From: a virus
Taxonomy: Duplodnaviria > Caudoviricetes
Length of the DNA stretch: 64,000 bases
IMG/VR virus record: IMGVR_UViG_3300042691_038938
Direction: 5' to 3' (one strand)
Positions 9,996 through 53,411 of this stretch are shown piece after piece. The notes beneath the pieces are model-generated. The model worked only from the letters and a program-made list of their open reading frames with translations, ran no database searches and was not told the origin of the DNA. Within the stretch, counting starts at the first letter, position 1. Each line of letters begins with the position of its first letter. The translations under genes were made by a program, and so were the position numbers.

Positions 9996-11075
9996 TTATT
10001 GACCGTATATGTTTCCTAAATCCTTAGTCGTCGGGTTTATGAACTGGGTTGCTGCAGCTAGGCTTGGATTGATCAAGCCACCGATTGATTCAAGAGAAGA
10101 CTTGAATTGGTCAGCTGCGCTACCGATTGCCTTTCCTACTAGAGGTAGATTACTTGCGCTATTCAGCACGTTCGCTCCTTGTGAGTTAATGTTTCTGTAA
10201 CTCCATGGGTTATTTACTTCCGACATTGACGGATCGTCTACTAGCTTAGTTCCGTCCTGATACTCGCTCTCTTCCTCAAAGAAGCCGATGTTTATGCTGA
10301 ATGCGTTTGTCGCAGCTTCTTTTCCAGCAGAGACTCCTAATGATGCACCTCCTGCGAAACTCTTCGTAAAGTCAAAAGTACACTGTCGACACTTGAATTT
10401 AATATAGCCGAACTGTTTTAGCACGCTAGCAACGTCTAGTTCACTAGAAAAGGCGCTTCCTGCATTTGCCAATTGGGTAGCGATAGTGTTTATTCCGCCA
10501 GTATTGATTCCAAACGTGTTTGCTAGGGCACCGACATTTCCTCCTAATGTGTATCGAATGTTCCTAACTTCGGCCACATAGATGTCCATTGCAAACCACT
10601 GCAGGTTATCCGGCAGTCTCTCCTTTAGGTGAGTCTTATCGAATATCGCTCCTCTATAGAGGTTAGCCAACTCAGTTATCCTAAGGTCAATCGCCTCTAG
10701 TGTGCTTATTGTGATTGAAGTTTCTTTACTTCCTTTGGCAATGTCCGTTCCCTTAGTCCACATTGAATCAAGACCGGTGATCGACTGAAAGTACCATGGT
10801 GCATTAAAAGTAATGTATTCTAAGATCTCCTTAAAGGTCTTGATCTGTGCTTCTTTGTCCTTGTGACCGACTGATCCAAAGTATCGCTGTGCGCTGTTAG
10901 ACGCCTCTGGCTTTGCAAAAAGTGGGCTTGTCCAGAGTATGTCTCCGAAGGGCGCAGCTTCCTCAAACCTAAAATCGATTGAAAAAGTCAAGTAAGTCGG
11001 CTCGTCGTATCGATCGAAGTTTAAGCCTTTTCTAAAGGTATTTACCTTGTTCTGTATTCCGTAAAAGTTATGCAT
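9996..11075 (-). CDS. Probable tail-tube-like baseplate protein (gp54/gp19-like)
   Basis: Baseplate operon position; PWYFQSITGLD and TLEAIDLRITELANLYR resemble tube-fold proteins of jumbo myoviruses. Confidence 0.5.
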   Translation of the reverse strand: MHNFYGIQNKVNTFRKGLNFDRYDEPTYLTFSIDFRFEEAAPFGDILWTSPLFAKPEASNSAQRYFGSVGHKDKEAQIKTFKEILEYITFNAPWYFQSITGLDSMWTKGTDIAKGSKETSITISTLEAIDLRITELANLYRGAIFDKTHLKERLPDNLQWFAMDIYVAEVRNIRYTLGGNVGALANTFGINTGGINTIATQLANAGSAFSSELDVASVLKQFGYIKFKCRQCTFDFTKSFAGGASLGVSAGKEAATNAFSINIGFFEEESEYQDGTKLVDDPSMSEVNNPWSYRNINSQGANVLNSASNLPLVGKAIGSAADQFKSSLESIGGLINPSLAAATQFINPTTKDLGNIYGQ

Positions 11076-12561
11076 TTAGGGTCGTGATTGTTTTTGATGG
11101 AGTCCACTCTCTCTTCGTTAGAAATAGTTCTGTCCAGAATAGCATCTTGTCCTTAGGATCAAAGTAATACCTGGCTCCCTTAACGTAATATTTCCCACTT
11201 AATTGAGTGTCAATGGATTCTGATCCTAATTCTTTATTTTGAGCGTTAGCCGTATTCTCTTCCAAGTTAGCATCCTTTCTGAGCTTTTCAGCCATCTTTA
11301 CTGTTATGAATAGCGGAATAGCTGATCCTCGAATCACATTGAAATTGATTCCTTTTAATCTCACCTTAAGTTGCAGCTTTTCTAATTCTTGCATGTTATG
11401 AGTATTAAAGACTCGAGCAGCATTCCAGTGTTCGTGAGTGTTTCCATAGTTAATGTCCATCCATTTCTTATGACCTACCTCAGTCATTCCCTCGTTCTGA
11501 GGAACTAGCATGGCGTCTTCTGATGCTCCTGGAGAAGTAAGCGGAACCGTCCAAAAAGTCTTGAACTTTTTGGCCTCATCGGGTTCTACTTGATCGTAAT
11601 AATAGATCTGTTTCTTGTAACCGGAAGATCTTAAAACGTTTCCCTGATCAGAGATCAAATTCGCTTCATAGATGTAATTTATCTTATTCTTATAACCTAC
11701 CTGGTTTGTCAGAAAGTTAACGACCGTGTCTTCAGATATTCCCTGTTTTAACTGAGAATTCTTTTGAGTCTGGTCAGAGTCTGCTTGCAAAGCGTCTGCC
11801 CATGAATTAAAGGTCAGGTCAGTCTCTGCTGGAACTATTTGTGTGTTCACTTCAATTAGAGCTAACATGAGTTCTTTACTAATGAATGATGTAAAGAACG
11901 ACTCATCGTTTTGATAAGCGTGCTCTGCTACATGTCGAATAAAATTTAGAGGACTGCTACAGAAATTTATCCAAGTCATGGCATCGGCCGGTGAGTAGTC
12001 GTTCTCTACAAAACCTAGACCCAATTCTTGACAGATCTGTTGAAGAGCTTCCTTTGATGTAGAATTAGGATAACTCTTAGCCGCGTTATTGTGTAACCTA
12101 GGAATAAACAGCTCCCCAGAAACAAGATAAGTTATGTTCTTAGTCAGCTCTACGTTGTCTCCTGAATTACGAGGAGCTATCGACTTCATGCTAGCAATCA
12201 GGAAGTCCGCTCTTACTGGTTTTAAGTTTGGATTAGGAGACTTTAGATATACGCTTGCAAGCAAATGCTTTTTAGGATATGTGTTTCCTGAAAACTCTCC
12301 AGCCGAATCCTTAAAGATGAGAGTAAGCTTAGGTAAGAAAGCAGTCTCATCAATAGTCATCGATTCAATATTTGTGACTACCTGTCCTCCTATTTTCACA
12401 AAGGGCACAGTTGATCCCGCCTTTTGAGCAACATCAGGATACACAGTCGACTCTTTAGTTATGGAAGGAGTCGTAGAATCTTTCGATGTATCCAAATCAA
12501 AAAGATCAACCATCTTGATCGATGGTTGAATAGTAGTCTTTAATGTCTGTTTAAATGCCAT
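11068..12561 (-). CDS. Probable baseplate hub protein (gp27-like)
   Basis: About 500 aa between gp53-like and gp5-like genes; C-terminal SGKYYVKGARYYF...WTELFLTKREW typical of hub proteins. Confidence 0.65.
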   Translation of the reverse strand: MAFKQTLKTTIQPSIKMVDLFDLDTSKDSTTPSITKESTVYPDVAQKAGSTVPFVKIGGQVVTNIESMTIDETAFLPKLTLIFKDSAGEFSGNTYPKKHLLASVYLKSPNPNLKPVRADFLIASMKSIAPRNSGDNVELTKNITYLVSGELFIPRLHNNAAKSYPNSTSKEALQQICQELGLGFVENDYSPADAMTWINFCSSPLNFIRHVAEHAYQNDESFFTSFISKELMLALIEVNTQIVPAETDLTFNSWADALQADSDQTQKNSQLKQGISEDTVVNFLTNQVGYKNKINYIYEANLISDQGNVLRSSGYKKQIYYYDQVEPDEAKKFKTFWTVPLTSPGASEDAMLVPQNEGMTEVGHKKWMDINYGNTHEHWNAARVFNTHNMQELEKLQLKVRLKGINFNVIRGSAIPLFITVKMAEKLRKDANLEENTANAQNKELGSESIDTQLSGKYYVKGARYYFDPKDKMLFWTELFLTKREWTPSKTITTLNA

Positions 12562-15071: not shown

Positions 15072-17030
15072 TCAGTCTCGGTTTTTCAAAAAATCGTTAA
15101 AGCTTGAAATCTTTTGTACCATCGATTTCTTCTTGGTTTTCTTACCCTTTGGCTTTCTTCCCGGACCAGCAAGAGCAAAGGTATCCATGTTAGAGTCTAC
15201 CATTGTGCCTGGAGTCTGGAATGCTGTTCCTGGAGAGACTCCTCCCTCGCTCTCCTTCATCTCAGCCGACTTGTAAAACTTAGGGCCCTCATTATCTCCA
15301 TAAGGAGTTAGTCCAACTACGTCTAACCTAGCCTTTGCTGTCGCCTTTTTAAGACCCTTATCAAAGTCTCGACCTGCTTGCTTTCCTCTAGTCACTAGGA
15401 CTCCTGCTTTGATTATGCTTGCGAGTCCATTGAATATTGCCTGGTTCTGCTTAGCGTTCTTTGCAGCGACTACTGCATCCCCTGCATCAGGGATTCCGGC
15501 AAAAAGTCCTACGACCAACTGCCCTAGTCCCTTAAGAATGTTCTTTAGCGGACTCTCTGCAATACGATCCTTTTCGCTTACGGCTAGCTTTATTTTAACG
15601 TATAGTGGAAGCTTTAGGTCTGGCTTTAACTGGATTCCCTTAAAGTTACCCATGTTAAAGTCCTTAGAGAGATAGCTATTCTTGATCTGTTTTTCTTTCT
15701 CAGCAGCAATGGCCTCTACTTTAGTCACGGCTGATGTTCTGTCCCTGTCTGAAAGTTCTCCGTCCTCTGAGCTCTTGATGTATTTTAGGATCCACTCCTT
15801 ACTTAAGGAAAGATACGTTAGCTGGTCTTCCTCTAGCGCGCTCTCTTTTGAAGAGCTCGCTTTAAATTGAGCTGCTCTACTTAAGCTATTAAACTCGTTA
15901 GTGATAGCATTTTCCATCCACGCAGAGTTCTTCTTGTCCAGTGCCTTGAATAGCTTATAATAGTCTCCTCCTGGAGGAGAAACTTCCCCATTCACAATAG
16001 GAGGAAGTAACGCAAGGTTAAGTGCCGAGATTAAATTGTTCTTGATCAAGTTCTTTCGACGAAGACTCGGCTTCTCAACTTTTCCAAGTTGTTCCTCTTT
16101 CTTTTTTATTGCTTTATCGTAGACCGCTTGATATCCTAGTGCGTCTATTAGAGGCTTCCAATCTATGTTCAATTGATATAGTCCTTCTGGCGTGTTTGGG
16201 ATATCGTAAATTCTCTTTTTATCTTCAGCCATCGCATCGGCAATCTCCTTAGCTATCAAATCGTTTGCCTTTTGCAAGATCTTTTCGATCTTTTTTCTAT
16301 TTGATGCGCCTACTGATTTTTTAGCCTCCTCAACGATCTCAGGATTAGACTTAAGAATTCCTTTAAACATCGATTTCTTTAGAGTCTGCTCGTTTCCGTT
16401 CTGATCAGTTATGATGAACTCGTCCGACTTTACTGCATTGTGAACTCCTCCTACTAGCTTTATCTTATAGACTGGAGTTCCCTCCCTCGTTGAGAACTTC
16501 AGCTCAGTTCCGTTCTCTTTGAAATAGAGCATAAGAGCAGTCTCAGTGTCGTAATCTGGTGCAGTGCTTGCGTAACTAAATATTTTATGGATCTTATAGA
16601 TACGACTTGAGAGTTCAGCTTCTCTAGTTTTTAAGGCATAAAACTTCTTAAATGAGTCCTCAGGTTTTATCTTTTTCTTTTCTGCTGAGATCTGACTGAT
16701 CGTCTTTCTAGTCCTCTTCACGAACTCGTCAACCATTCCGATCTTTTCAGGCTCGACCAACATCATGAGAATCCTTTGAAGTTCAGGCTGATTTTGAATC
16801 TTTTCTAGTAGATTGACGTCAATCTTTTCTAATGCCTTTTCTAAAGAGTCAAAGGATGTTGTCCTAGCGGTGTCGTCGACTGGATCACCTCCTATTCCGC
16901 TCGAAATTAGCTCCCGAATCTCATCGAACTCAGAACTTGATTCGTCCTTCTTTGACGAAGTCTCAGCTTCCGCTTCAAAAACGGGAGTGACTGTTCCCAG
17001 CCAATGTTTTAAGTATTCTCCAAAGCTCAT
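15072..17030 (-). CDS. Large hypothetical protein with capsid-targeting-like motifs at both termini
   Basis: 652-aa ORF; N-terminal MSFGEYL..FE, C-terminal KISSFNDFLKN. Confidence 0.7.
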   Translation of the reverse strand: MSFGEYLKHWLGTVTPVFEAEAETSSKKDESSSEFDEIRELISSGIGGDPVDDTARTTSFDSLEKALEKIDVNLLEKIQNQPELQRILMMLVEPEKIGMVDEFVKRTRKTISQISAEKKKIKPEDSFKKFYALKTREAELSSRIYKIHKIFSYASTAPDYDTETALMLYFKENGTELKFSTREGTPVYKIKLVGGVHNAVKSDEFIITDQNGNEQTLKKSMFKGILKSNPEIVEEAKKSVGASNRKKIEKILQKANDLIAKEIADAMAEDKKRIYDIPNTPEGLYQLNIDWKPLIDALGYQAVYDKAIKKKEEQLGKVEKPSLRRKNLIKNNLISALNLALLPPIVNGEVSPPGGDYYKLFKALDKKNSAWMENAITNEFNSLSRAAQFKASSSKESALEEDQLTYLSLSKEWILKYIKSSEDGELSDRDRTSAVTKVEAIAAEKEKQIKNSYLSKDFNMGNFKGIQLKPDLKLPLYVKIKLAVSEKDRIAESPLKNILKGLGQLVVGLFAGIPDAGDAVVAAKNAKQNQAIFNGLASIIKAGVLVTRGKQAGRDFDKGLKKATAKARLDVVGLTPYGDNEGPKFYKSAEMKESEGGVSPGTAFQTPGTMVDSNMDTFALAGPGRKPKGKKTKKKSMVQKISSFNDFLKNRD

Positions 17031-17253: not shown

Positions 17254-18813
17254 TTATTTTAGGGTAGTGTATTCTCCGTTGATGAAGTGAAGGTGTTGGG
17301 CCTTTCCATCCTCATGGATTATCACATGAGACTGCAGCCAAGCGCTAGGTCCGATATTGTAACCCACTCTAAGCTCAGTTGAAGTTCCTACCGCAAGCGC
17401 ACCATCCTTTCTTCCAGGTGAGTGGTAGTGACCGACTATTATCTTAGTATTTAGCTTTCTAAACTGTTGTAGGGAGCCTCGGCTGCCTCCTGAGCCTATG
17501 TCTCCATGTTGACCCAGCTCCCAACCGTTTACGATATAGCTATCGCTTCTTCCCAAAGTCGTAAAGTGTGGATACTTTTTCTTGATTACCCAAGGAATCA
17601 CTCCCTGCGGAGCCTCTCCATTTAGGATTGCCGCTGAGAACTGCATGTATTCCAAGGAATTCTTTGGTGTCAGGGTCTTTCTCCAATCGGTGTTCTTTAA
17701 CCACCGATCCACGAAATCATCATGATTGCTTCGAACTATCACAGTATTGTATTCCGCGAAATCAGATAGACCCTTAAGAAGATCTTCTATCTCTTTCTTC
17801 AGAGAATTAGTACCTTCCATCTCTTTTTGATATTGAATAAAAGGATCCTTTTCCTCGTGATGAGATATTGATTTGCCGTCAAATACGTCATGTAGAACAA
17901 CATGGTCTGGCTTCATCTTAGCCATGAAATCAAGAGTCTTGTCGAGTACCTCTTGGTCGTGATGACCGTAGTGTAGGTCTCCAAGGACGATTGCTGATAC
18001 TTTTTCTGCTCTATCCACTTCACCGTTTTCTACTCTATAGAACAGGTCAGTGAATGAACCGTTATCCGTTGCTGTTACTTGCCGCATGAAGAAGGAACCT
18101 TCGTCCTTTATCTCAACGATAACGAATCCCAATGTGTGGTGAAACTCTCCCTTCTTACCTGATTTAGAATCAGTATAGTTCTTCATGGTGCAAGCTCCAG
18201 TAGTGACCATCATCTTGGGTTCATGACCTTCTAGAACAGGAATCATTTCCAGCTGCATCTTTGGTGAGCCGAAAACGCAAGAGTTTATGCCGCTCATTCC
18301 TTCAAGTCCAGTCATGGGATTCACAGCAGTTGGCTGGATCTTCACGTCAGACATGATCGATACTCTCTTATGAATGTCATGGCGATTCGCATCTAAATAC
18401 TTAACGACTGAACTGTGCCATTTCTCTTCCATCGTTTGCGCGTTAGTCCAGACGCTGGTCGGATTTTTATATCGACCTGCAATCACATGAATGTCAGCAT
18501 TGATGAATTCGGCATACGCCTCAATGTTTTTTAAGAATTGATTATGAACTGGAGTATTGTTTTGAGCCCAAGTAATGATGAATCTCTTAGACTTCTTATT
18601 GTGTTCTCTAGCCTGAGCGATCTTAAACTGTTCTGGTTCAGGTATGCTTTTGGAAGTTATTCCCAATTTTGATACCCATTTCTCTATTGTTCTCTGAGTG
18701 ACTCCAAATCGATCGCTTAACGAATTCATTCGAACGACCCACTTGAGATCTTTGTTTAGATAGGTTTCAGATATGTAAGTTTTATCAATTTCTTCTAGGT
18801 TATTAAACCTCAT
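17254..18813 (-). CDS. Calcineurin-like metallophosphoesterase with N-terminal HTH
   Basis: GDLH, HDVFDG, SNHD, QHGD, GHYH motifs; LSDRFGVTQRTIEKW helix-turn-helix. Confidence 0.85.
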   Translation of the reverse strand: MRFNNLEEIDKTYISETYLNKDLKWVVRMNSLSDRFGVTQRTIEKWVSKLGITSKSIPEPEQFKIAQAREHNKKSKRFIITWAQNNTPVHNQFLKNIEAYAEFINADIHVIAGRYKNPTSVWTNAQTMEEKWHSSVVKYLDANRHDIHKRVSIMSDVKIQPTAVNPMTGLEGMSGINSCVFGSPKMQLEMIPVLEGHEPKMMVTTGACTMKNYTDSKSGKKGEFHHTLGFVIVEIKDEGSFFMRQVTATDNGSFTDLFYRVENGEVDRAEKVSAIVLGDLHYGHHDQEVLDKTLDFMAKMKPDHVVLHDVFDGKSISHHEEKDPFIQYQKEMEGTNSLKKEIEDLLKGLSDFAEYNTVIVRSNHDDFVDRWLKNTDWRKTLTPKNSLEYMQFSAAILNGEAPQGVIPWVIKKKYPHFTTLGRSDSYIVNGWELGQHGDIGSGGSRGSLQQFRKLNTKIIVGHYHSPGRKDGALAVGTSTELRVGYNIGPSAWLQSHVIIHEDGKAQHLHFINGEYTTLK

Positions 18814-46642: not shown

Positions 46643-47254
46643 TTATTTTACATAATTGTAATATTTATAAGTAAGCTCTTTTCTGTGCTCTAATCCATTA
46701 GTTCCTCCATTAATTCTCTTTGTTAGAGCTAGGATTGCCGCATCAGTTATTCCTTGATCACAGATGGTCCATAGCTTGTTTCGGTCAAAGAAAAACATTG
46801 CAGACTCAAAAGCATATGTTGTTGCGACTAAGTCAGGGTTTTCCATTATCTCAGGTTTCTTCAAATAGTCGGAGAAGTTCTTATAATTGGATTTTCCTGT
46901 CAACTGTAGGGCACCTCTTCCTCTATATTTCCAGCCGTCTCCTGATGTCTCATCCCCATTACCCATTCTGCTCGCATAAACTCTATTAGCAATCTTTTCA
47001 GGTTGTCGAGCATAGGACTCTTCAAGCGTTCCAGGAAAATACTTTCCAAAGGTTCCTTGTAATCCTTGAGCCGAATAATTTAGGTTTTCACTAAACGCCT
47101 TGAATACTCCAGTCTCATGTGAGGTTTGAGCAAAGAAGTGAGCTGCTCTCACCGGAGTTAGCTTATAATAAGCCATCGCGGCCTTCATTGTTCCAGGACC
47201 AAACGCACCATCGGTAGTAGTTCCTATCTTTTCTTGTAAACTTTTTAAACTCAT
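46643..47254 (-). CDS. Glycoside hydrolase family 19 endolysin
   Basis: DGAFGPGT PG-binding-like start, AAHFFAQTSHETG, ENLNYS, YRGRGALQLTGKSNY, TKRINGGTNGLEHR. Confidence 0.93.
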   Translation of the reverse strand: MSLKSLQEKIGTTTDGAFGPGTMKAAMAYYKLTPVRAAHFFAQTSHETGVFKAFSENLNYSAQGLQGTFGKYFPGTLEESYARQPEKIANRVYASRMGNGDETSGDGWKYRGRGALQLTGKSNYKNFSDYLKKPEIMENPDLVATTYAFESAMFFFDRNKLWTICDQGITDAAILALTKRINGGTNGLEHRKELTYKYYNYVK

Positions 47255-49309: not shown

Positions 49310-50011
49310 TTAAATCTTTATTTTATATGCAGTCGTTTTTGCCACTCCCTTTAGGTTTCTTAGAGGTTCGCAAGAGTGTAACTGTAATTCTGAAAGAAGT
49401 CTACCGCTTCTTCTACGTTTACCCTCATAACATCTCTGCTGATAGTCAATGATCTCTAATTTACGACTCTTCTTAGAAACTAGATCCTCTATCCTTTTCT
49501 CCTCCTCTTTAGGTAGAGCTTCAGTAAAGCTAAAGGTCACGTTTCCAGGTTCAGAAACAGTCGACTCCATTCGAGAAGCAGTGTTTACCGTGTTACCGAA
49601 GAAGTCCCATAGTTTTTTACCTTGGATGTCTGTCTGCTTTTTATATAGAGGTCCCCAGCAGATCCCAAGTCGAATCGTCATGTTCTTATCCTTAATCTTG
49701 ATAGGGTTATTCTTAAGGTCCTCCTGTATCTCCATGCCTGCCTCTACCGCTCTTAGTAAGGAGTCCTTGCCCTCGAAGCTGACCATGTAACTATCACCGA
49801 TAGTCTTTACGATCATGCCCTTGAACTTTGTGACCACCTTTGTCATTCGCTTATTGTGCTCTTCAAGAGCATTGAACATGCCAGACTGATGTAGCTTCCA
49901 AAGCTTAGAGCTTGACTTAACGTCAGTGAACAGGATCGCCTGCTCCTTCTCTTCAAGTTTCTTTAGAGAGTCAATGCTCTCCCAGATAGGATAAGATACT
50001 AAGTATTTCAT
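49310..50011 (-). CDS. Class III nucleotide cyclase, adenylate-specific residues
   Basis: ILFTDVKSS, VKTIGDSYM, IRLGICWGP, DFFGNTVNTASRMES. Confidence 0.92.
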   Translation of the reverse strand: MKYLVSYPIWESIDSLKKLEEKEQAILFTDVKSSSKLWKLHQSGMFNALEEHNKRMTKVVTKFKGMIVKTIGDSYMVSFEGKDSLLRAVEAGMEIQEDLKNNPIKIKDKNMTIRLGICWGPLYKKQTDIQGKKLWDFFGNTVNTASRMESTVSEPGNVTFSFTEALPKEEEKRIEDLVSKKSRKLEIIDYQQRCYEGKRRRSGRLLSELQLHSCEPLRNLKGVAKTTAYKIKI

Positions 50012-52348: not shown

Positions 52349-52386
52349 TTTGAAAGTTTTTTATTATTTATCTTAAACTAAAATAA

Positions 52387-52411
52387 AAAAGGACTCAGCA
52401 AGAGTCCTTTT
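52387..52411 (-). terminator. Rho-independent terminator of the zinc-ribbon gene
   Basis: AAAAGGACTC-AGCAA-GAGTCCTTTT with an A run giving a U tail on the minus strand. Confidence 0.85.
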
Positions 52412-52433
52412 CCTAGAGCCTGACGGGCAAAAT

Positions 52434-53192
52434 TTATACTTTAGTTCCGCAGTTAGGGCAGAACTTCCAGCTGGATTTTTTAAGACGCGAGCCGCAATCA
52501 GTGCAGTAGTTTCTAATCTCTTTAAGATCGACTGGTTTTTTGGACTCTGGCAAGATCCTGATAAAGACTGAATTGCTTGCCCAGAAATTATATTCTGAGT
52601 TGTCCTGACCGAATTCTTGGTCAGAAGACTCTCCCTTCTCAGTTCGGCCAGTCTCAAGGGATCCTGCGATCGGCATTGAAGAGGTGACCATTGACGAGTT
52701 TGCCCCAATGACATCGTTCAGTGAAAAACCTAAAGTAGGATTAGAATTAGAATAGTAGACTGTGTTGACTGTTGATCCGCCGAATGGAGGATATGAGTCA
52801 TGCGTCCAAGTAGTATTGAACCCACCTGTCAGCTTGATGAATTCATCATAAAACTCTATTTTTACTCTACCGTTTTCTCTAGTTGCCTCCTTCGATTCAG
52901 CTGAGTTCTCGACTTCATAAGTCTCAAAGATAAACTTTTTTGGCTCATCGATCCATCTTTCTAAAAAGACTCTCTGGCCAGGTTTCACCACGATTCCAGT
53001 CGATGAAATAAGTTTTTCATCGATGTAGATCTTGGCAAGCACCTTTGATTTTTTGGGATTGTAAAGCTCTATCTCAAAGTGAGTCCCGTCTTTAAGATAG
53101 ACTTTGTTATCGTATTGTTTCATACGATTTCTGTTCACTGCAATGTGTGCAGTAGGAGACAGTGAGTCCCCTTTAATTGATGTGTAATTCAT
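52434..53192 (-). CDS. Conserved phage protein with C-terminal zinc ribbon
   Basis: GIVVKPGQRVFLERWID..KF.FETYEV; C-terminal YCTDCG...WKFCPNCGT. Confidence 0.8.
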   Translation of the reverse strand: MNYTSIKGDSLSPTAHIAVNRNRMKQYDNKVYLKDGTHFEIELYNPKKSKVLAKIYIDEKLISSTGIVVKPGQRVFLERWIDEPKKFIFETYEVENSAESKEATRENGRVKIEFYDEFIKLTGGFNTTWTHDSYPPFGGSTVNTVYYSNSNPTLGFSLNDVIGANSSMVTSSMPIAGSLETGRTEKGESSDQEFGQDNSEYNFWASNSVFIRILPESKKPVDLKEIRNYCTDCGSRLKKSSWKFCPNCGTKV

Positions 53193-53212
53193 AATTTACC
53201 TGTTTTTTTAAA

Positions 53213-53283
53213 GCCGACATCATCGTGGGTCAACCCACTCAAAAGCCACTAGGACTTGATGCCGACTGGAGTGTCAGGCTCTA
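53213..53283 (-). promoter_or_regulatory. Candidate structured 5' leader RNA (pseudoknot-like)
   Basis: GUCGGCAUCA/UGAUGUCGGC 10-bp helix with two G-U pairs (minus strand only), GUGGG-UUGA-CCCAC hairpin, AGAGCC/GGCUUU crossing helix. Confidence 0.55.
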
Positions 53284-53411
53284 TTGATATTTACTCTAAT
53301 TTAGGTAAAAGTTTTTGGGTTAGGAGGTTACTGCTCTCTAGTTTATCTGCTATTTCTGATCCCTAGGTCCAAGCTTATGAGTCCTTCCTAGCTTCTTTAA
53401 AGTTGGCATTG

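Follow-up and report, generated by a model that had tools for sequence, protein, structure and literature searches.

Analysis of a 64,000-nt stretch of phage DNA (hereafter the window) revealed that the leader of a gene encoding a 252-aa protein is almost certainly a genuine conserved RNA, which, judged by comparison of its homologues, folds into a Y-shaped three-way junction, and that its first bases very likely pair in vivo with a sequence near the 3' end of the same message. The folds are well supported, and from them we infer a function, for which an autoregulatory operator is the best reading of the leader. The complete proposal, which we regard as evenly poised, has two components: an operator acting on translation, to which the Ig-like domain of the product probably binds, and a switch that completion of the 3' end would release. 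Together, the end pairing and the leader would probably set protein output. In the order of the putative transcript, the elements are:

53288-53314, minus strand: putative promoter, with AAACTTT at 53314-53308 and a TAAATA box at 53293-53288.
53273-53283, minus strand: 5' switch segment UAGAGCCUGAC, whose alternative partners are the 3' UTR and the CAGGU upstream of the AUG.
53258-53267, minus strand: 5' strand of P1 (the T helix of the k-junction nomenclature), in which a G-U wobble is conserved 5 bp from the junction.
53243-53257, minus strand: P2 hairpin AAGUC/GGCUU (C helix), with no linker to P1 and a near-invariant G-C at pair 3.
53239-53242, minus strand: junction strand UUGA (U 100%, N variable, G 96%, A 100%), corresponding to L2, L3, G1b and A2b.
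53225-53238, minus strand: P3 hairpin GUGGG/CCCAC (NC helix), whose pair 5 is U-G in the family (91%) and G-C in the window.
53222-53224, minus strand: junction strand GAU (R 98%, A 100%, W), corresponding to 2n, A1n and one extra base.
53212-53221, minus strand: 3' strand of P1, pairing with 53258-53267.
53193-53211, minus strand: A-rich translation initiation region, with CAGGU at 53202-53198 as the weaker partner of the 5' segment.
52434-53192, minus strand: gene for the 252-aa protein, with an Ig-like beta-sandwich (DUF7918-like), a disordered insert at ~118-177 and a C-terminal zinc ribbon.
52414-52424, minus strand: 3' UTR element GUCAGGCUCUA, the exact complement of the 5' segment, abutting the terminator.
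52385-52413, minus strand: intrinsic terminator hairpin, directly abutting the 3' UTR element.

The window is AT-rich phage DNA with a GH19 endolysin at 46643-47254, and the Atlas clusters of the 252-aa protein are 96-100% viral; the Lak records and three of the MAG bins point to Bacteroidota as a candidate host phylum. The leader occupies a 219-nt gap separating a 488-aa ORF from the 252-aa ORF, and three genes downstream lies a stand-alone gene with a class III adenylate/guanylate cyclase domain (49310-50011, minus strand; Pfam E 9e-23). A GATAAATAA-type box stands ~25 nt upstream of many start codons in the window (e.g., 17050, 21301, 26904, 46505, 52365, 55164, and 60270), and the variant box of the 252-aa gene itself stands 103 nt upstream of its start. 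Matches to the box in the window were intergenic in 24 of 51 cases, although intergenic DNA makes up 6% of the window, and the two-box form AAACTTT-N10-15-GDTAWATA was found in 60 loci, with the window's variant falling outside the exact pattern. The transcript would start a few nucleotides downstream of the TAAATA box.

The junction is composed, in order, of P1 (53267-58/53221-12), P2 (53257-43), UNGA, P3 (53238-25), and RAW, and its core of ~56 nt lies 14-44 nt upstream of the AUG on the sense strand. In a structure-blind MAFFT alignment of 54 leaders, 93% of pair cells were paired in register, compared with 38-49% for a slid structure used as a control, and double changes occurred in 20 of the 21 pairs; the same fold was predicted independently by RNAalifold. 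Against a tree-simulated null, 12 of the 21 pairs in the model-fitted alignment reached E<0.05, the single passing column pair outside the fold consisted of adjacent columns, and no tertiary covariation was detected in the junction. P2 was paired in 94-96% of cells, and the covariation pattern was repeated in the metagenome set. The U and A of UNGA, the A of RAW, and the G at the third pair of P2 are invariant; all three helices show recurrent G-U wobbles, and the loops are unconserved. Folding also followed the sense strand (z -2.3, core -3.1, compared with -0.6 on the opposite strand), in agreement with the G-U asymmetry pointed out earlier. Full-length energy folding disrupted the junction in 7 of the 22 homologues tested, the window among them, and energy modelling allows part of the window's coding sequence to outcompete the junction for pairing. 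In addition, a local 5' hairpin (P0) picked out by eye proved clade-variable, being strong only in the L008 clade, which itself lacks the end helix, and was not retained as part of the core.

This leader had been singled out in an earlier note, made from the sequence alone, as a pseudoknot-like structured element. The letters quoted there are present on the minus strand, the structured leader was confirmed, and the conservation and covariation among homologues that it had named as its own test were strongly evident; the three-way junction and the pairing of the 5' and 3' ends had been missed. Its GUGGG/CCCAC hairpin exists and is P3, and its 10-bp helix (53266-53257/53222-53213) exists with two G-U pairs, the tenth (top) pair being formed in 19 of 54 sequences. 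The crossing AGAGCC/GGCUUU helix fared differently: 64% of its cells pair, with little double-sided change, and it is complete (6 bp in any register) in 8 of 75 loci compared with 5% of shuffles, while GGCUU is locally paired with AAGUC in P2, so that it is refuted as a conserved element. With it falls the suggested analogy to the T4 gene 32 pseudoknot, because the crossing helices are not both conserved and covarying. The hammerhead catalytic core consists of CUGANGA and GAAA, and HDV-like ribozymes form a nested double pseudoknot. A hammerhead ribozyme was rejected because the junction strands are UNGA and RAW rather than this catalytic core, and an HDV-like ribozyme because the crossing helix is not conserved and no Rfam ribozyme matched. 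Searches of Rfam 15 at gathering and E-value thresholds gave no match over the leader in the window and 32 homologous loci, and weak PreQ1 and frameshift matches (E 3.5-6.7) were confined to the A-rich start region. The absence of a match and the almost one-to-one tie between leader and gene support the earlier proposal of a cis-regulatory RNA belonging to no Rfam family.

The junction resembles the k-junction, defined by Wang, Daldrop, Huang, and Lilley in 2014 with examples in the TPP riboswitch and at J4,5 and J94/99 of 23S rRNA (PMC4005666). Both have three helices, T and C helices that abut without a linker, a short loop that leads into G1b and A2b, and G or A at 2n. The signature was found in the leaders as G1b (96%), A2b (100%) opposite a purine at 2n (98%), and A1n (100%), with the adenines 1n and 2b being the most conserved positions in both cases (100% here; 99.5% and 99.96% in TPP). 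The linker between the C and T helices (P1-P2) is 0 nt and their closing pairs covary; P1 and P2 probably stack coaxially. Unlike the k-junction, the leader has an extra base (W) separating A1n from the T helix, its G1b and A2b are contiguous, with no insert, and it has no TPP pocket; irregular k-junctions have also been described (PMC4005666). The leader is termed k-junction-like because of this extra base and because the motif is defined by hydrogen bonds in three dimensions, whereas the leader is described here by its sequence and secondary structure.

The protein family is widely distributed, with 1,104 clusters at 50% identity matching at E up to 1e-30 and homologues in hundreds of IMG/VR contigs, many of them from phages of 250-370 kb; homologues with the leader were also detected in Prevotella Lak phages and in phages of 460-735 kb, at 30-41% protein identity. 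With the covariance model, the window gave a single copy (53206-53295, 76 bits), as did each of five near-complete genomes, and 36 of 39 further records matched, with a single clear copy each except LR756501. The Lak leaders scored weakly (21-25 bits) with all helices intact, and fell below stricter genome-wide filters. Among 80 metagenome homologues, 78 are preceded by the leader; one of the exceptions is cut off, and in the other, the homologue L268 (44% identity), the leader has a long simple stem in place of the junction (L268:1040-1215). Moreover, a gene-blind DNA pattern search returned 25 matches, all of them before a homologue, and the leader was not found in 150 other genomes of the phylum of the L081 bin. 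Several loci showed peculiarities of their own. In L273 (1-830), the leader and approximately the first 35 codons are duplicated, with an in-frame fusion to the tail of the upstream gene, reflecting either recombination or misassembly. In L057 (2593-2783), a group I intron match (Rfam RF00028) occurs just upstream of a tRNA-like sequence, close before the leader. In the Lak loci L207-L209, the homologous ORF reads through one or two TAG codons, consistent with code 15, and the junction is kept with the end clamp undetectable.

For the pairing between the 5' segment and the 3' UTR, cognate duplexes from 84 loci had a median of -22.9 kcal/mol, compared with -10.8 kcal/mol for non-cognate duplexes and ~-9 kcal/mol for shuffles. 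The helix reached -15 kcal/mol or below in 42 of 50 new loci, and the end clamp was present in 100 of 131 loci overall. Its core covaries (GAGCC, GUGCC, GCGCC, and ACACC), G-U pairs outnumber A-C pairs on the sense strand (45 vs 18), and its arms are bulged and differ completely between clades. In locus L336, where the gene forms an operon with a vWA gene, the 3' partner lies 632 nt past the first stop, beyond vWA and before the terminator, with a pairing energy of -23.2 compared with -16.5 for the best of the null; this single case ties the end helix to the transcript end. When distant 3' partners were sought for loci without a near clamp, a clear transcript-end site was found only in L336; the distant partner in L186 (-21.7 vs a null minimum of -19.0) is at no evident transcript end. 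The end helix is absent in the Lak phages, the LR756501 clade, the L008 clade, and the vWA leader copies, and is thus unnecessary for the role of the junction, which would be the universal core, with the clamp as a common addition.

The alternative partners proposed earlier for the 5' segment proved real, namely CAGGU before the AUG and an exact 11-nt complement past the stop, beyond the region considered at the time, and covariation shows both predicted pairings, with the start region and with the end. The start-region registers are clade-specific (CCUG/CAGG, ACAUAG/CUAUGU, CCUUU/AAAGG, UGGUGC/GCACUA, and UCUGG/CCAGA), and this helix reached -6 kcal/mol or below in 94% of new loci compared with 40% of non-cognate and 18% of shuffled cases, related loci being non-independent; it is weak or missing in several clades. 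The two helices overlap in bases at 79 of 85 loci, and the end pairing is the stronger in 125 of 131. Ensemble folding predicted that pairs between the 5' segment and the start region fall from a mean of 4.4 to 0.6 once the 3' UTR is present, and that the accessibility of the start region rises from a mean of 0.63 to 0.70, with a gain above 0.05 in 15 of 33 loci and no change in the window. Because this mean gain is small, and nil in the window, the on/off effect is the weakest link of the proposal, and a start-region switch may be favoured by a slight margin.

With respect to the encoded protein, AlphaFold predicted a confident beta-sandwich, a disordered insert, and a zinc ribbon, and the protein is rich in invariant basic and aromatic residues. 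Fold and sequence searches of the PDB returned generic Ig-like or zinc-ribbon matches, none of the fold matches (best Z 6.5) was to a known RNA-binding protein, PHROGs and NCBIfam supplied no name, and the window protein had no Pfam match to DUF7918 (PF25534). A predicted-structure match (TM 0.58) was obtained to a bacterial cluster in which 13% of members carry DUF7918, a domain without mention in the literature searched. Further predicted-structure relatives were found in giant viruses, iridoviruses, nudiviruses, WSSV, and baculoviruses, with Foldseek E down to 1e-20 for a SHOCT-tailed phage protein and 4e-11 to 4e-3 for eukaryotic DNA viruses. The predicted fold matches DUF7918-like and viral Ig-like proteins, including ranavirus ICP-18, WSSV wsv390, granulovirus P22.2, and giant-virus proteins, a likeness between predicted models at 9-31% identity. 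A caspase-inhibitor function, considered because of the wsv390 match, was unsupported by the literature search. Two huge-phage homologues carry a SHOCT-type tail in place of the zinc ribbon (Pfam-confirmed for L204) and retain the leader, so the zinc ribbon is not needed. In the LR756501 clade (L211:1474-2724), the disordered insert is enlarged, with a weak collagen-like repeat score below the Pfam cut-off.

The leader is also associated with the vWA gene, which lies directly downstream of the family gene in L336 (1375-3260) and L203 (1372-2971); the 5' segment pairs between the two genes in L203 and after vWA in L336. LR756501 and a relative carry a vWA homologue (33% identity to that of L336) that lies ~107 kb away, with a leader copy of its own. 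This second copy precedes a 215-aa vWA gene (L298:828-1592, i.e., LR756501 371019-371783, minus strand; and L302:880-1648), and in LR756501 it resembles the genome's own leader (L211) and has no end clamp. Since the leader accompanies both the gene and its vWA partner, a diffusible factor may read it, the simplest candidate being the product of the gene; plain duplication of a strong leader might also have produced the vWA copy. Whether the gene's own protein binds the junction would be a close call, with the balance tilted slightly against it.

On the reading that we prefer, the leader would belong to an element with two parts that controls the translation of a stand-alone mRNA of ~900 nt. 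In the first part, P1 and P2 would stack, and tandem G-A and A-R pairs would kink P3 in the manner of a k-junction, presenting the invariant junction bases and the conserved G-U wobbles as a candidate protein-binding site. The likeliest binder would be the encoded protein's Ig-like domain, so that the product would feed back on translation of its own message and, in some phages, perhaps on that of the partner vWA gene. In the second part, during transcription, the first bases would pair weakly (~-7 kcal/mol) with the initiation region that P1 brings near, and the terminator-proximal 3' UTR, once made, would capture the same bases in a stronger helix (~-22 kcal/mol), closing the transcript ends and possibly lifting the block on the start region.

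The message as a whole is also highly folded. Compared with synonymous shuffles, the coding sequence gave z values of -3.5 to -5.3 in the window and a family median of -3.0, whereas 47 window genes gave -0.9, and the full transcript folded with a z of -7.2. No position-conserved covarying helices in the coding region were clearly above a synonymous-permutation null, and a rod-like fold of the whole mRNA, to which the minimum-energy structure of the window had pointed, was rejected, its leader-to-3' pairs numbering 58 in the window compared with 11-30 in homologues, and hence not being shared. Excess local folding relative to synonymous shuffles (z -3.4 to -3.6) was also observed in three other ORFs, at 17254-18246, 15072-15917, and 11068-11979 (minus strand).

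The most serious competitor to the operator, to which we assign a minor though appreciable share of the probability, is that the end helix and junction protect the mRNA from ribonucleases or set its cleavage, the start-region pairing being incidental. Such a role would suit the geometry, in which the complement lies just before the terminator as in hbs (PMC5737220), the burial of the putative first nucleotides by a pairing that follows the transcript end, the over-folded coding region of the family, and the small predicted change in accessibility; it leaves unexplained the invariant junction bases, the clade-specific start-region complements, and the vWA leader copy without an end helix. It appears improbable that the start-region pairing is shifted by a host protein bound to the leader or by a riboswitch aptamer sensing a metabolite, an ion, or a nucleotide signal. 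The invariant junction bases and the alternative pairings would be compatible with it, as would the fact that k-junctions build the TPP riboswitch core (PMC4005666), but the junction module together with one G-C pair accounts for all of the bases, only about six, that are invariant or near-invariant, the loops show no conservation, tertiary covariation is lacking, and the element stands before a single gene family and its partner and went undetected in a search of 150 cellular genomes.

More improbable again is the idea that the closed, highly folded mRNA is itself the object being handled (a long-lived or packaged RNA, for instance), with the junction as its recognition tag; the z of the transcript, the excess folding of its coding region, and its closed ends are in keeping with this, whereas the lack of position-conserved covarying coding helices and the loss of the clamp in several clades are not. 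Very little weight is left for an inverted repeat acting at the DNA level, as a mobile cassette or recombination site around the gene with the leader unrelated: the repeat in the window is a perfect 11-bp inverted repeat and the flanking genes vary between phages, but G-U pairs are biased to the sense strand, the arms are bulged and wholly different between clades, both lie inside the putative transcript and follow its end, and the element is nearly always single-copy. Finally, the earlier proposal of a T4 gene 32-like pseudoknot operator, or a self-cleaving ribozyme of the HDV kind built on the same crossing helix, is scarcely credible, as the six pairs can form in the window's single sequence but show little double-sided change and are complete in 8 of 75 loci compared with 5% of shuffles, one strand is already taken by the covarying P2, and the Rfam ribozymes are unmatched.

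The RNA offers an immediate way into an unstudied protein fold, one whose predicted relatives occur in bacteria, giant viruses, iridoviruses, and baculoviruses, and it points to a vWA partner; with a core of ~56 nt, it would be easy to probe, crystallise, and test in a reporter. Known end-paired mRNAs of bacteria and phages are few, and the toxin examples among them are silent at full length, while the family described here, which is large and has members in the Lak megaphages, repeatedly shows a covarying end clamp and a putative junction operator. A more far-reaching and speculative version, which we think rather unlikely, is that huge phages possess a new RNA-protein feedback module, in which the Ig-like domain represents a new class of RNA-binding regulator reading a k-junction-like operator on its own and the vWA mRNA, and in which only completed messages are licensed for translation, through the pairing of the transcript ends, the opposite of the hok/aapA logic. 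The literature search returned no paper describing the leader; Fremin et al. (2023) reported 8,495 candidate viral RNAs from IMG/VR, among which the leader may already figure, in a study whose main text makes no mention of a zinc ribbon (PMC10690425).

Compared with known systems, the leader is partly like hok/aapA, hbs, and autoregulatory operators and is a member of none of them. The Bacillus subtilis hbs mRNA forms a 14-bp helix (-19 kcal/mol) between its 5' and 3' UTRs, which modulates cleavage by RNase Y (Braun, Durand, and Condon, 2017; PMC5737220). The phage message shares with it a helix of similar size that joins the 5' UTR to the sequence just before the terminator of a protein-coding mRNA; it differs in that its 5' arm is at the putative 5' end and has a competing partner in the start region, and in that, across a large family of phages, the helix goes together with a conserved junction. 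In the type I toxin mRNAs hok (plasmid R1) and aapA (H. pylori), the full-length RNA is silent and is activated by 3' trimming (PMC6733600). Covarying long-distance pairing of the 5' and 3' ends and weaker, metastable helices at the ribosome site during transcription are common to both, whereas the 3' element of the phage is predicted to pair with the 5' segment instead of the start region, and the gene encodes a 252-aa soluble beta-sandwich protein instead of a small toxin peptide. Because the segment that opposes the start region is the one taken up in the end helix, the predicted polarity runs opposite to that of hok/aapA. The pseudoknot of T4 gene 32 is an autoregulatory mRNA operator (as cited in PMC10690425), and, like this operator and the leaders of ribosomal protein genes, the phage leader is structured, close to the start codon, and tied to a gene and its operon partner; unlike T4 gene 32, it is built on a three-way junction rather than a pseudoknot, and would be a putative rather than an established target of its own product.
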